Below are positions 1 through 5,233 of a stretch of 5,233 nucleotides of DNA, piece after piece (the first letter of the stretch is position 1; every line of letters starts with the position of its first letter). A program made the translations under genes and the position numbers. The notes below the pieces were generated by a model. It made no database searches. It saw nothing but the letters and a program-made list of their open reading frames with translations, and had not been told where the DNA came from. The stretch lies in the IMG/VR virus record IMGVR_UViG_2660238548_000009; one strand, 5' to 3'. Origin of the DNA: a virus. Its lineage: Duplodnaviria > Heunggongvirae > Uroviricota > Caudoviricetes.

Positions 1-79
1 GTAATTTACGGGTGATTCGTTCAAGTAAAGATTCGGAAGGGCAGCCAGCAACAGGCCACCCTGCAATGGCATATTGCAT
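1..79 (-). CDS. cIII: cIII, 5' portion only (gene runs off the left edge of the window)
   Basis: Minus-strand translation from ATG at 79..77 gives MQYAIAGWPVAGCPSESLLERITRKL, which I recognise as the N-terminus of lambda CIII. SD AAGGAG (complement of 86..91) lies 6 nt upstream. Confidence 0.85.
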   Translation of the reverse strand, partial: MQYAIAGWPVAGCPSESLLERITRKL

Positions 80-151
80 GGTGTGCTCCTTATTTATACA
101 TAACGAAAAACGCCTCGAGTGAAGCGTTATTGGTATGCGGTAAAGCCGCGC

Positions 152-463
152 TTAGGCGGCTGATGTTTCTTCTTTCAGGCTTTCGAGATATTTACGTGGG
201 TCGTCGTAACATTGGCATTCGCTGTACCAATCCACCCAGCGATCAGTAAGCCCCATCTCTGATAAATCTTCATCGGTAAGGCTCTCATCCCACATCTCAA
301 GGCCGTTAGCATTGCAGTAATCAGGCTTGATGTTGTTGTCATACTGAAAGGCGTCATAATCAGCCAGTGCGTCCATCAGACGAACACCCTCTTCAACACT
401 TGCCACTTCTACAATGAACGGCTTCATAGGTACTTGCGGGATATGCCAGACACGTAATTTCAT
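152..463 (-). CDS. Hypothetical 103-aa early-left-operon protein in the position lambda uses for ea10; not homologous to lambda Ea10 as recalled
   Basis: ORF-track frame 152..517; I place the start at the internal ATG 463..461 (MKLRVWHIPQV...) because it has a strong SD GGAGG (complement of 468..472) and the upstream in-frame codons run through a terminator hairpin. Ends ...LKEETSAA, stop TAA. Confidence 0.6.
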   Translation of the reverse strand: MKLRVWHIPQVPMKPFIVEVASVEEGVRLMDALADYDAFQYDNNIKPDYCNANGLEMWDESLTDEDLSEMGLTDRWVDWYSECQCYDDPRKYLESLKEETSAA

Positions 464-475
464 ATATCCTCCGTC

Positions 476-504
476 AAAAAAATTGCCCTCACACTGGAGG
501 GCAA
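476..504 (-). terminator. Intrinsic terminator for leftward transcription (hairpin plus U7), lambda tL2-like position
   Basis: Minus-strand RNA reads UU-GCCCUC-CAGUGU-GAGGGC-AA followed directly by UUUUUUU (complement of A-run 476..482). Core stem 485..490/497..502, extendable by two A-U pairs. Confidence 0.5.
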
Positions 505-565
505 AGAAGATTTCCAATAATCAGAACAAGTCGGCTCCTGTTTAGTTACGAGCGACATTGCTCCG

Positions 566-592
566 TGTATTCACTCGTTGGAATGAATACAC
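566..592 (-). other. Perfect 9-bp inverted repeat (GTGTATTCA / TGAATACAC, 9-nt loop); possible RNA hairpin or processing site
   Basis: gtgtattca (566..574) is the exact reverse complement of tgaatacac (584..592). No U-tract follows on either strand, so it is not a canonical terminator. Confidence 0.4.
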
Positions 593-606
593 AGTGCTTA
601 TTCGTA

Positions 607-1077
607 CTAATAAAATACCCAATTTTCTGTTTCTTGGTTATGTCCAAAGTTATATTCAATATCTGGTGTTGATGTATCAATATTTTTCATCCCATCAACA
701 AGAGTTGATACAACAGCCAAATCTTGTTTTATTCTCATTAAATGGTATTTCTTCCGGCGCAATAAACTTTCAATAGCAAGTTTCTTCGTTGGGAATGCAA
801 AAGATCTTTCTGCATTTTTTGCTACTTTCTTAATTGCATATCTATTTCTCCTTTGTTTCCATTCCTGTAACCACTGATTTGGTGCTGGTTTAAAATTAAC
901 AATCCAATGCGCAGGAACCAACCATGCATAATGCTCTGTCTGATGAAAAGCTATATATTGAAGTGCGAATATTTTTATCCCATCTTCTTCAACTGTCGCC
1001 TGGAATCTCCAGAAAACAGGCATTCCATCATGTTCAGTTTCTAATTCAGGAAAAGGTACGCTCCATGATTTTGTCAT
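607..1077 (-). CDS. Hypothetical 156-aa protein, function unknown (occupies the ral/sieB slot downstream of N)
   Basis: ORF-track ORF with SD GAGGTGA (complement of 1081..1087) 6 nt upstream of ATG 1077..1075. Acidic N-terminal part and a strongly basic central segment (KQRRNRYAIKKVAKNAERSFAFPTKKLAIESLLRRKKYHLMRIKQ). Co-oriented with N. Confidence 0.65.
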   Translation of the reverse strand: MTKSWSVPFPELETEHDGMPVFWRFQATVEEDGIKIFALQYIAFHQTEHYAWLVPAHWIVNFKPAPNQWLQEWKQRRNRYAIKKVAKNAERSFAFPTKKLAIESLLRRKKYHLMRIKQDLAVVSTLVDGMKNIDTSTPDIEYNFGHNQETENWVFY

Positions 1078-1135
1078 ATCTCACCTCAAATAAGTGGTTT
1101 GCTGCCTAATTTCATTTTCTGGCGACCAACACAAG

Positions 1136-1519
1136 TCACCTCGCCGTCAGTTGTTTGGATTTCCGGTAGCCTGCCGCGTAAATGGCTACGTTTGGAAGAC
1201 ATACACCAGTTTCTGGTTGCTTATGTCCAAACTCATTCGCGTACACAATGGCCGCTCGCTCCAGATTGCGTCTGTATTCTTTCTGTTGCCAGATCACGTC
1301 CTGTGCCATGAACTTAATTGGCTTAGCGTCTTCTATACGCTCAGGCGTTTCGTGAGTACCTTTAGCCTGAATCTGCGCTCTGCTTAGAGTAGGGCGGTGT
1401 AATACTTCTGAACTTATTGCTTCTTCGCGGGCCAGTACGCCGTTAGCTAATGCCTTTACCTTTAAACGCTCACGACGACGAGAACGTGAATTGCCTTTGA
1501 ACTGAGTTCTGCGTGTCAT
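1136..1519 (-). CDS. N: N-type transcription antiterminator, non-lambda specificity (P22/21/H-19B-like)
   Basis: 127-aa product MTRRTQFKGNSRSRRRERLKVKA... has an N-terminal arginine-rich motif typical of N-family proteins. Start ATG 1519..1517 has SD AGGAGG (complement of 1525..1530). The 46 extra upstream codons of ORF 1136..1657 lack an RBS and lie in the PL leader. Sits immediately downstream of PL/OL. Confidence 0.8.
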   Translation of the reverse strand: MTRRTQFKGNSRSRRRERLKVKALANGVLAREEAISSEVLHRPTLSRAQIQAKGTHETPERIEDAKPIKFMAQDVIWQQKEYRRNLERAAIVYANEFGHKQPETGVCLPNVAIYAAGYRKSKQLTAR

Positions 1520-1675
1520 ATAGACCTCCTGATGAACTTTGGTGGTGTGGTAGGTGGGAGACCCATTTCGACCTACTTCAATTCGGCAATAGTCCCGCAG
1601 GCCTCGCCGCTTTACGTGCGACATATTCCCGTCCATGAACCCTTCACCACACCCCAAAGTTCACTTTGGTTATTG

Positions 1676-1690
1676 CGCTTTGTCAGCGCC
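1676..1690 (-). promoter_or_regulatory. nutL boxB-like RNA hairpin (GCGCU-GACAA-AGCGC)
   Basis: Minus-strand transcript carries GCGCUGACAAAGCGC (5-bp stem, 5-nt GNRA-like loop) about 60 nt downstream of the predicted PL start. It matches my recollection of the P22-type nutL boxB and fits the non-lambda N. No convincing boxA (CGCTCTTA-like) was found upstream. Confidence 0.55.
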
Positions 1691-1757
1691 GTAGATTCAT
1701 ATTCGAATCGTTGTATATTCACCGCCCTGGTGAGTAGTGCGTCCTGCTGATGTGTTT

Positions 1758-1996: not shown

Positions 1997-2161
1997 CTAG
2001 ATTTTAAAGTATTTATCTTTTAGAGATGTAGATGTAAAACTTTTCGCCTTTGAAAATTTTTTGTCATCAGAAGGGCTTATGAACTCATCTTTTTTGTAGG
2101 GAACCGCTAATGCTGCATCACGTCTGCGAGGCAGCTTGCTTACTTCCTCGCGCTTTTTCAT
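1997..2161 (-). CDS. Putative small lysine-rich protein (55 aa), not in the supplied ORF track
   Basis: Hand translation of the minus strand from ATG 2161..2159: MKKREEVSKLPRRRDAALAVPYKKDEFISPSDDKKFSKAKSFTSTSLKDKYFKI, stop TAG 1999..1997. The ATG lies 2 nt after the kinase stop (TGA-TC-ATG); weak SD AGGA 9 nt upstream. It fills the whole gap between the kinase and the terminator in AT-rich sequence. Confidence 0.35.
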   Translation of the reverse strand: MKKREEVSKLPRRRDAALAVPYKKDEFISPSDDKKFSKAKSFTSTSLKDKYFKI

Positions 2162-2163
2162 GA

Positions 2164-3210
2164 TCAGTTATCCTTTAATAACCTATACAGTTTTGTAGGG
2201 GTACATCCTGAGGATATTGTTAAGTTCGTAGCACGCCTTTTCCGCCCATCATCGTATAAACGAAAACCAGTAGTAGACGAATTTTCTGCGTCAAAAACTA
2301 TAGACAGTATAGCGTCCCCAGACTTTTTTTGCCATTCGCATGTGCCGTTAGTTGGTTTCGTCATCTGTAGACGCCAGTCAAGAACGCCATCACTTATAGC
2401 TGAGAGATCGTTTAGTACATCTAGTACGGATTGATATCTTTCATTTGGATCTACATGAATGCATTTGTTCACTATTGTTATTAATTTTTTATGTATATGG
2501 GGAGGATACTCTTTTAATGGATAGCAGCCATTAATTATCGACTCTCTGAGTTGTTCAATCGTGCTAAATGCAGATCTTTCTCTTTCAAAATTATCATGTC
2601 CAACACACATTCTATATATGGTTAATCCTGCCTGATATATGTCATATGTGAAATTATAATCATTTGTTGATAAAGAAAAATATTCCGGTGGCACATGAAA
2701 ATGATATCCAAACTCAGGCGCAGCTCTCGATTCCTCATTGACTAACTGAGATAATCCAAAGTCAGATAGCATGGCCTCATTTCTGTTTGATATCATAATG
2801 TTATTAGGTTTTATATCAAAATGCATAAGACCTTTTGAGTGTATATGATAAAGTCCACTTAAAAATTGAATGGAATACCGTATTATCTCCCTGCTTGTAA
2901 GATTATTTTTTTTCATTAATTGGTTTAGCGAACCATTATGATAAAATGGCATGGCTATATAGATATTGCTCTCACATTGAGCAGCATACTGAACTTGCAC
3001 AATATTTGGATGTGCATGTTTATAGAGAAGCCTTGCTTCATTAAAGTAGTCGTCGTGGTTAGTGTTTTCTTTTTTTTCTATTTCTTTAATCACCAAGTCA
3101 TGAGCTAGGTGTCTGTCATGAGCCAGATATACTTTTGAAAAACAACCCTGTTCTTCTAGATCACTAATCCATTCGAATTCTACATCAGCTCTTTTGTATG
3201 GAGTTAGCAT
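2164..3210 (-). CDS. Eukaryotic-like (Hanks-type) Ser/Thr protein kinase, 348 aa, with a roughly 80-aa non-kinase C-terminal extension
   Basis: Kinase subdomain motifs in canonical order: degenerate Gly loop QGCFSKV (res 21-27); VIK with catalytic Lys42 (codon 3085..3087); catalytic loop HFDIKPNN with Asp132 (2815..2817), the D-x-K-x-x-N form typical of Ser/Thr kinases; DFG 150-152 (2755..2763); PPE 174-176; DIYQAG; HVDPNER. SD GGAGG upstream; the start overlaps the stop of the upstream gene. Confidence 0.9.
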   Translation of the reverse strand: MLTPYKRADVEFEWISDLEEQGCFSKVYLAHDRHLAHDLVIKEIEKKENTNHDDYFNEARLLYKHAHPNIVQVQYAAQCESNIYIAMPFYHNGSLNQLMKKNNLTSREIIRYSIQFLSGLYHIHSKGLMHFDIKPNNIMISNRNEAMLSDFGLSQLVNEESRAAPEFGYHFHVPPEYFSLSTNDYNFTYDIYQAGLTIYRMCVGHDNFERERSAFSTIEQLRESIINGCYPLKEYPPHIHKKLITIVNKCIHVDPNERYQSVLDVLNDLSAISDGVLDWRLQMTKPTNGTCEWQKKSGDAILSIVFDAENSSTTGFRLYDDGRKRRATNLTISSGCTPTKLYRLLKDN

Positions 3211-3665
3211 CCCCTTACCTCCGCAGATAGTGCAGCCAAAACAGCTTCATTTGTTTCAGTTGTAAAACCAGAATTATCGATTCCATTTATATTGCGGTGT
3301 GACTTCAATATTTCTTTATACTCGATCTCTGTTAGGTTCAATGATGATTTCATGCCAGATTTTCTAATAGTGTAATATTTTCTTACATCACTGCTTGAAA
3401 ATGCTTCTTGAATAACAGCTTCTATATAAAGGCGGTCAATGCTAAGATTATCAGAGTTTGATTCAGTAACGCGTATGGCAGCTAATTCAACATTATATAA
3501 ATTAAGAATGTCGAGGATGTTATTTCTCACATACTTTAATTTTTCTGGTGTGTCTAAGGTCGAAGGTATTTTAATGACATCAACACATTTGAGTGCAGAC
3601 TCATTAGTGCAATATACAACAAAAGATGTAACTTTGGGCGCCGCTCTAACACCTAGTATTCTCAT
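3204..3665 (-). CDS. Hypothetical 153-aa protein, translationally coupled to the kinase; possible RNase H-like/RuvC-like fold (weak, by eye)
   Basis: ORF-track ORF. Its stop TAA (3206..3204) overlaps the kinase ATG (3210..3208) as ATGCTAA. Segments MRILGVRAAPKVTSFVVY, PEKLKYV...LAAIRV and NEAVLAALSAE resemble the RuvC segments ILGIDPGSRVTGYGV, PSRLKLI...FAIEQV and DAADALAIAI, but Arg sits where the first two catalytic acidic residues would be. Confidence 0.7.
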   Translation of the reverse strand: MRILGVRAAPKVTSFVVYCTNESALKCVDVIKIPSTLDTPEKLKYVRNNILDILNLYNVELAAIRVTESNSDNLSIDRLYIEAVIQEAFSSSDVRKYYTIRKSGMKSSLNLTEIEYKEILKSHRNINGIDNSGFTTETNEAVLAALSAEVRGC

Positions 3666-3716
3666 TTTTTATATCCTATTTTAGAATCAGGCCGCATCTC
3701 TGCGACCATCCATCAT

Positions 3717-3731
3717 CCAAACGTCTCTTCA
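3717..3731. repeat. 15-bp direct repeat, copy 1 (ccaaacgtctcttca), downstream of the 113-aa gene
   Basis: Exact 15-nt match to 4088..4102. On the minus strand it reads TGAAGAGACGTTTGG followed by ATGA, i.e. a copy of the cI C-terminal codons EETFG plus an in-frame stop. Confidence 0.9.
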
Positions 3732-3732
3732 C

Positions 3733-4074
3733 TCATCCGAAGAAGCAGCAATCCGGGTCAGCACGCACAAGCTCAAGCGCATCAGTCAGCGAAAGTTCAG
3801 TACTGTACTGATGCCATTTCATATCCTTCCGCATCCAATAGATTTTCCATCTATCCAGAGAACGTATGTACTTGATTCTTGCTGATGGCAGGATGTTTGT
3901 TTCACCTGGGTTGCCCTGCCACACGGGGCGCTGTTCGCCGATATCTATCGTTTGGTCATTGATGCTATAAACAATATCCAGTTCATTGCGGATATGTTCA
4001 GGCGGCCTTATGCTTTCAATGAATTGGTGAACTTCTTTTTTGACCGCTTGATATTCAAGGTCAGTGAACGCCAT
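3733..4074 (-). CDS. Hypothetical 113-aa protein, first gene downstream of cI (occupies the rexA position)
   Basis: ORF-track ORF. ATG 4074..4072 lies 9 nt after the cI stop with a strong SD GAGGAGGA (complement of 4078..4085) inside the cI 3' end. W/Y-rich (WKIYWMRKDMKWHQY), ends in CCFFG. No motif I can assign. Confidence 0.7.
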   Translation of the reverse strand: MAFTDLEYQAVKKEVHQFIESIRPPEHIRNELDIVYSINDQTIDIGEQRPVWQGNPGETNILPSARIKYIRSLDRWKIYWMRKDMKWHQYSTELSLTDALELVRADPDCCFFG

Positions 4075-4083
4075 CTATCCTCC

Positions 4084-4800
<717 letters not shown>

Positions 4801-4897: not shown

Positions 4898-5098
4898 ATG
4901 GAACAACGCATAACCCTGAAAGATTATGCAATACGCTTTGGGCAAACCAAGGCGGCTAAAGATCTCGGCGTATATCAAAGCGCGATTAACAAGGCCATTC
5001 ATGCAGGCCGAAAGATTTTTTTAACTATAAACGCTGATGGAAGCGTTTATGCGGAAGAAATAAAGCCCTTCCCAAGTAACAAAAAAACAACTGCATAA
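4898..5098 (+). CDS. cro: Cro repressor, lambda-type (66 aa)
   Basis: [66 protein letters not shown] is near-identical to lambda Cro as recalled (three conservative differences). Sits directly downstream of PR/OR1. Confidence 0.95.
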
Positions 5099-5233
5099 GT
5101 AACACCGTGAGGTGTACTGGCAATAGCGGACACTACCATTTGTTCTTTTTTTAAGCAGCCATCTGATGATATTTTTCCCTGAAGGCTGCCGGGGAGATAT
5201 TCCCCAGACGAGAGTGACGACGCTGACGATTGT

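Follow-up and report, generated by a model that had tools for sequence, protein, structure and literature searches.

Organization of the early-left region

The window, by which we mean the whole 5,233-nt stretch analysed, is the early-left and immunity region of a mosaic lambdoid prophage. The gene under study lies on its minus strand, directly 3' of the antiterminator gene N. In order of coordinate, the features of the window are the following.

34-92, minus strand: lambda cIII thermoregulator RNA (RF01804; 88.5 bits, E=2.5e-21), the only Rfam family in the window
152-463, minus strand: gene of the P22 gp17 type in the ea10 position (PF17420, E=7e-56; phrog_1510, 'superinfection exclusion')
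476-504 (504 to 483), minus strand: intrinsic terminator, UUGCCCUC-loop-GAGGGCAA followed by U7; the earliest strong terminator encountered from PL onward, and a conserved boundary of the cargo slot on its left side
560-597, minus strand: stem-loop in the 3' UTR with a 12-bp core (565-576/581-592) common to lambda
607-1077, minus strand: gene under study (933W L0079 / HK97 gp45, phrog_1636), 156 aa, 18.6 kDa, pI 9.07, ATG start
1081-1087, minus strand: Shine-Dalgarno sequence GAGGTGA, 3 nt 5' of the ATG at 1075-1077
1086-1145, minus strand: fossil of an N C-terminus of lambda/phi21 type (...GEVTCVGRQKMKLGSKPLI, then stop), out of frame with the 933W-type N, its TGA overlapping the Shine-Dalgarno sequence
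1136-1519, minus strand: N antiterminator of the 933W/HK97/H-19B type (Pfam N_peptide, E=4.8e-15; 99.2% identity to 933W N), predicted upstream cistron of the transcript carrying 607-1077
1675-1741, minus strand: nutL, transferred from the 933W annotation at 98.5% identity
1758-1786, minus strand: PL promoter, TTGACA-17-GATACT, inside a lambda-like OL/PL region
1997-4074, minus strand: 933W block in the rex position (PL to cI), with a 54-aa ORF, the stk kinase gene, a RuvC-like 153-aa protein and a DUF3024 protein
4084-4797: cI, lambda-type
4898-5098, plus strand: cro
about 5108-5233, minus strand: end of IS600 (IS3 family), with the transposase C-terminus (...NRQRRHSRLGNISPAAFREKYHQMAA, then stop)

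Positions 1719-1999 are 90% identical to the OL/PL region of lambda. The rex-position block runs as far as the annotated tM terminator (1975-1996) and probably constitutes the window's cluster of defence genes expressed from the prophage; its Stk Ser/Thr kinase matches the PADLOC models mad6 (E=7e-50) and PD-T4-6 (E=1e-37), and its DUF3024 protein matches the candidate system PDC-S43 (E=7e-42). At the left end of the window lies the start of cIII with its thermoregulator RNA, followed by the P22 gp17-type gene (152-463, minus strand), which is not an Ea10 of the lambda or 933W kind (DUF2528) and over which DNA homology to both lambda and 933W is broken exactly at 161-476. At the right end lambda homology stops at 5107, just after cro, and a crippled prophage is suggested because the IS600 end interrupts the PR operon between cro and nutR/cII. 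The complete mosaic of lambda immunity, 933W stk block, 933W-type N, L0079 and P22-gp17-type ea10 was found at a coverage of at least 80% in 3 of 5,426 complete E. coli genomes, none of them a perfect match, and in none of the phage records at that coverage.

An earlier reading, made from the letters of the sequence and their open reading frames and hereafter called the sequence-only reading, had described at 607-1077 a well-initiated gene with an acidic N-terminal half, a Lys/Arg-rich centre and an AT-rich 3' part. All of this agrees with the measured values: the ATG lies 58 nt from the stop codon of N, residues 1-40 carry a net charge of -4, residues 69-120 hold 16 Lys or Arg and a net charge of +12, and the final 94 nt have a GC content of 27.7% (34.8% for the gene as a whole; the window has 41.5% and N 49%). 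The C-terminal 36 residues (121-156) are acidic again (net -5), a feature that had been missed.

The protein had also been called unknown, which is incorrect with respect to its novelty. It is an already-known gene, catalogued since about 1999-2000 and assigned to phrog_1636 (function unknown), whose profile it matches over the full length (E=2.7e-111, residues 1-156 against profile positions 1-156 of 156). L0079 of 933W (AAD25424) and gp45 of HK97 (AAF31125) are the same gene with essentially no difference, at 99.4% and 98.7% protein identity respectively, the same length of 156 aa, 98.7% nucleotide identity in the case of L0079, and the same position directly 3' of N. The ORF is certainly a real and strongly conserved gene because of the PHROG match, Enterobacterales homologues at 55-99% identity, a dN/dS of 0.08 in comparison with HK97 and a structural model with a pLDDT of 95. 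In comparisons with other genera, pN is 0.2-0.27 while synonymous substitution has reached saturation (pS 0.75-0.9).

The gene occurs in 83 phage records, including H-19B, BP-4795, phi24B, Min27, Stx2 phage 86 and dozens of Stx1a and Stx2a phages, and in 598 of 5,426 complete E. coli genomes (11%), a single genome having as many as four copies; of 833 E. coli locations in all, 6 are plasmid-borne. It is annotated as hypothetical in every record. Pfam, NCBIfam and PADLOC hold no family for it, and within PHROGs only families of unknown function match. The sole match among the 5,027 models of PADLOC-DB 2.0, Cas1_II at E=0.018 over 45 residues, is noise. A literature search by name, accession, locus name and PHROG identifier found no paper on L0079 or gp45, and the papers on Stx-phage genomics, transcriptomics and EHEC phages that were consulted do not discuss the ORF.

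The early expression from PL that had been proposed fits the anatomy of the region. In a promoter scan of the minus strand from 100 to 2100, PL (1786 to 1758) was the only promoter-like site, and nothing resembling a terminator precedes the gene except a weak 5-bp hairpin within N. The gene shares its strand with PL and has a strong Shine-Dalgarno sequence; since it lacks its own promoter and follows no strong terminator, it probably shares the immediate-early PL transcript with N, would be made early in lytic growth and would be repressed by cI in the lysogen; this co-transcription is deduced from consensus scans, by which Rho-dependent termination is not predictable. Lambda differs in this respect, as its ral lies beyond tL1 and needs N.

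Immediately to the left of the gene, homology to lambda resumes as the sequence-only reading had stated, with positions 477-597 matching lambda 33,925-34,045 (ea10-ral intergenic) at 99.2% and ending 10 nt from the stop codon. The hairpin reported there at 566-592 is real; as it has no U-tract, the 560-597 stem-loop is no terminator by itself. The terminator at 476-504, at a place where HK97 also carries an annotated putative terminator, sits 60-80 nt beyond this hairpin. Together the two stem-loops and the terminator of the 3' UTR (470-612, minus strand) fold with an MFE of -47.4 kcal/mol (z=-4.65), and the 12-bp first hairpin might serve for RNase III cleavage, for stabilisation or for pausing.

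On the other side of the gene, the 60 nt before the Shine-Dalgarno sequence encode, out of frame, the end of a lambda/phi21-type N (...GVTCVGRQKMKLGSKPLI). In other prophages, which have a phi21/lambda-type N, this tail is in frame and N ends 8 nt before the gene, and in strain 86-24 the stretch is labelled by PGAP as a partial antitermination protein. The fossil travels with the gene as one module and marks the right-hand recombination joint, at which a different N was spliced in.

An exchangeable cassette between N and the leftward terminator

The interval between N and the terminator, which in lambda holds ral, orf28 and sieB, had been taken for a second accessory hotspot of the region, and a survey of related loci bears this out. 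The exact terminator sequence of the left flank was found in 103 viral contigs, 71 of which had enough sequence for the interval from terminator to N to be catalogued. Across the 67 loci with both the left terminator and an N gene, the cargo ranges from 405 to 1,886 nt and comprises many different sets of ORFs. L0079 is carried by 17 of the 71 loci, ral/orf28 by 21 (often together with extra small ORFs), and other ORFs by about 29; some of these last slots carry genes on the opposite strand, like sieB. The exchange is seen most directly in a comparison of two contigs (L123 and L125) that are 98-99% identical on both sides of a core of about 515 nt, where one contig has ral/orf28 and its counterpart has L0079. 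The N-to-terminator interval is thus a true accessory hotspot, and L0079 behaves as an alternative cassette to ral.

Within 63 de-duplicated slot variants, L0079 and ral/orf28 never co-occur (hypergeometric P=0.008, without phylogenetic correction), and ral lies within 4 kb of the gene in none of 80 viral loci that carry it. Strict mutual exclusivity, which held in the flank-matched sample, is nevertheless broken by phage phi296, where the order is N, a 74-aa ORF, ral, L0079 and kil, and by 16 complete E. coli genomes with the same ral-L0079 tandem. In the phi296 record (PV189400.1, 3236-3971; our locus L200) the deposited start of L0079 is 54 nt late (3555 instead of 3501), so that the tandem looks wider spaced than it is.

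The wider genomic contexts agree with an independent unit. The gene always has the orientation of the early-left operon, and in 80 viral contigs it stands behind N genes of the 933W, phi21, lambda and hybrid types as well as behind some genes other than N. On its 3' side at least five different genes are found, including a lambda-type ea10, the P22-gp17-type gene and cIII. In Cronobacter a homologue is flanked by a different N and by cIII, the homologues of Pectobacterium and Brenneria come last among the early-left genes, before xis-int, and a relative with 41% identity is found between a repressor/N-homologue region and kilR/erf. No conserved partner gene was found across 13 context loci. 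The gene is therefore a stand-alone, single-gene mobile cassette of the lambdoid PL operon.

Accessory regions designated 'Ral' are among the top-scoring hotspots in surveys of phage accessory genes (bioRxiv 10.1101/2023.04.06.535777; Nat Commun 2025, PMC12373910), and genes of such regions can block defences or trigger abortive infection (bioRxiv 10.1101/2023.04.06.535777; PMC12373910). One gene of a Ral region, orf184, triggers gop-beta-cII (bioRxiv 10.1101/2023.04.06.535777), and UDP0089, a neighbouring accessory gene, is noted as 'likely metal binding (C..C)' (Silas et al., Supplementary File 3). Neither the gene studied here nor any family motif is present in the gene lists of the two accessory-gene screens (200-gene) (bioRxiv 10.1101/2023.04.06.535777; PMC12373910). 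At about 107 aa only, orf184 of Silas et al. was ruled out as the same gene. Residence in a hotspot and exchange with ral show accessory status only, not a role.

Predicted fold and wider family

An AlphaFold (AF2) model computed with the family alignment as input has a mean pLDDT of 95.3 and a pTM of 0.82. It predicts a sheet of three long beta strands (19-30, 33-46 and 50-55) followed by two short helices, then a short basic beta-hairpin at 83-95 (strands at 83-86 and about 95), a 33-residue helix at 98-130, and an acidic C-terminal tail that is ordered and non-regular. None of the hydrophobic stretches in the sequence reaches the length of a membrane span, and the model is globular. By fold, no relative of the model was found among solved structures, and by sequence, searches of the PDB with the single protein and with two profiles gave nothing below E=0.1. 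A structure search of BFVD returned 14 uncharacterised proteins from very diverse phages at E<1e-3. Based on the model, the protein would be a soluble alpha/beta protein without a solved relative; Tudor, KOW, chromo and PipX-type small beta-barrels can be named among the closest known systems.

An exhaustive profile search recovered 87 cluster representatives at E<=1e-3, mostly of 130-165 aa and with 18-26% identity to the protein, and a reciprocal tblastn from one distant representative led back to the Stx-phage protein. These distant relatives were found in Serratia, Vibrio, Pseudomonas and Halopseudomonas phages and prophages and in metagenomes; relatives are also recorded in phages of Pseudomonas, Vibrio, Rhizobium and Cellulophaga. 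With the distant member P0066 as the query, rather than the protein of the window, tblastn against PLSDB gave no plasmid match.

In an alignment of 73 members, the charge pattern proved to be a property of the whole family. The segment 75-120 has a net charge of +5 to +14 (median +10) in all 73 members, the N-terminal part and the tail are acidic, and the median pI is 8.9. A basic residue is present at K87 in 97%, at R24 in 95% and at K109 in 85% of the members. Conserved positions include an aromatic-basic pair (23-24), Gly33 at the hairpin tip, an E/Q46-T47 motif, K87, A101 and K109, together with a heptad-like hydrophobic stripe on the long helix and a C-terminal ending of aromatic-x-Phe-acidic form. 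Pfam searches of all 73 members at E<=10 gave no recurrent signal and no recognised nucleic-acid-binding domain. The family-wide basic core, as read from the alignment, suggests nucleic-acid binding, and a conserved basic patch of this kind could equally serve in the binding of a protein.

Possible roles of the early protein

The reading that we favour, tentatively and at a little under an even chance, is that of an early, PL-driven, stand-alone accessory protein that putatively acts on the host, in counter-defence or takeover, through its conserved basic hairpin-helix, which would bind either nucleic acid or a nucleic-acid-handling host protein. The gene would be transcribed from PL on the N message, ahead of the first strong terminator, and the protein would appear within minutes of infection or induction, with the gene silent in a cI-repressed lysogen. 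The basic hairpin-helix core may then bind nucleic acid or its host handler, and the outcome would be that of an early host-interaction factor. Relief from a restriction-type defence, as provided by Ral, may be one sub-case of this scheme, with a mechanism that can be neither that of Ral nor DNA mimicry. The data establish what the gene is, how it is conserved, its behaviour as a cassette in a hotspot, the anatomy of strand and promoter, the confidence of the predicted fold and the conserved pattern of charge; when the gene is expressed, what the protein binds and which biological target it has are inferred.

One close comparison is lambda Ral itself, which shares with L0079 the N-proximal slot, the strand and the PL transcription unit, and for which L0079 is a swappable and usually mutually exclusive cassette. 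A functional analogue of Ral, giving early relief from type I or other R-M restriction and replacing ral where that gene is absent, would fit the clean exchange between the two contigs and the lack of co-occurrence among the slot variants and within 4 kb. However, Ral is a protein of 66 aa with Cys, whereas the 156-aa protein studied here has none and shows no sequence or profile similarity to it. Alignment by hhalign of the 73-sequence profile with lambda Ral gave a probability of 0.1%, and PF11058 was not hit. The adjoining ral and L0079 genes in phi296 and 16 complete E. coli genomes speak against a strict functional replacement for Ral, and relatives in phages of Pseudomonas, Vibrio, Rhizobium and Cellulophaga indicate that the family has no exclusive link with EcoKI-like systems. 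Being basic, the protein is not a DNA mimic either. Ocr and ArdA, which are strongly acidic DNA-mimic anti-restriction proteins, are likewise early accessory proteins of mobile elements found in variable hotspots, but differ sharply from a protein with a pI of 9.07 and a core of +12. On balance an analogue of Ral is unlikely.

Alternatively, the protein could be an accessory of DNA metabolism that binds DNA ends or ssDNA and assists genes of the Red, Erf or RecE type in the same operon. RecE-like, YqaJ or Erf genes do occur in the vicinity of distant relatives, gam-bet-exo or erf-abc2 lie downstream of the gene in lambdoids, and the combination of a basic core with an acidic C-terminal tail ending in aromatics resembles the tail architecture of SSB-type proteins. 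Early operons hold recombination genes in any case, however, and no recombination gene is a consistent neighbour. The presence of the gene moreover varies among phages with identical recombination modules, and neither an OB-fold nor a known annealing or SSB domain was detected, so that a part in recombination or replication appears rather improbable.

The sequence-only reading had also offered a defence role, which would make the gene a superinfection-exclusion or abortive-infection gene expressed from the prophage in the manner of sieB. Lambda sieB does lie in the corresponding interval, from N to the tL terminator region, and the neighbouring genes of the rex slot are defence-like (stk resembling PD-T4-6/mad6, and the DUF3024 gene resembling PDC-S43). 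Yet sieB lies on the plus strand, opposite to PL, whereas L0079 has the orientation of PL, lacks a promoter-like site of its own and should be repressed by cI. Kinship to SieB is not seen either, the hhalign probability being 0.6%. PADLOC gave no match, and the protein, globular in the model, has no membrane-like hydrophobic segment. Structural relatives furthermore occur in the N4-like phages phiAxp-3 and RG-2014, which we take to be virulent. The defence half of the earlier proposal is thus disfavoured: barring an unrecognised promoter, an exclusion role expressed from the prophage is unlikely, and we give it only a very slight chance. A lytic-early and lysogen-silent timing, as predicted for this gene, rather favours host takeover or counter-defence.

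Least probable of all is a cofactor of N antitermination, or another partner of N that targets RNA polymerase or Rho: the gene does lie directly 3' of at least four N alleles with a conserved junction to the N tail, but neither L0079 nor ral was detected in 14 flank-matched loci with a 933W-type N and 15 with a lambda-type N, the homologues of Pectobacterium and Brenneria are operon-distal beside xis, and relatives occur in non-lambdoid phages. The probability left over by the readings considered here falls to something outside them.

A more far-reaching idea concerns the family as a whole. HK97 gp45 and 933W L0079 might be the founding member of a structurally novel family of early proteins, reaching from lambdoid coliphages to phages of Pseudomonas, Vibrio, Rhizobium and Cellulophaga, which putatively neutralise a host defence or reprogram a host nucleic-acid transaction by a mechanism unlike those of Ral, Ocr/ArdA and Gam; the protein could also be a trigger that is sensed by abortive-infection systems, as is reported for orf184, another gene of the Ral accessory region, with gop-beta-cII (bioRxiv 10.1101/2023.04.06.535777). 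This reading is speculative, and we regard it as doubtful.

Most sequenced Stx-converting phages carry the gene, as does HK97, a model phage, and it is present in 11% of complete E. coli genomes, without annotation or a solved structural relative. Its location is among the best-known hotspots of counter-defence in lambdoid phages, and its product is probably synthesized along with N among the earliest phage proteins. It is an inexpensive and well-defined candidate for anti-defence and host-takeover screens, as the genetics of HK97 and lambda are easy and ral is a natural comparison cassette at the same position. A negative result in such work would leave it as an ordinary conserved hypothetical accessory gene, while a positive functional result would provide a function for a family spread over many phage groups.
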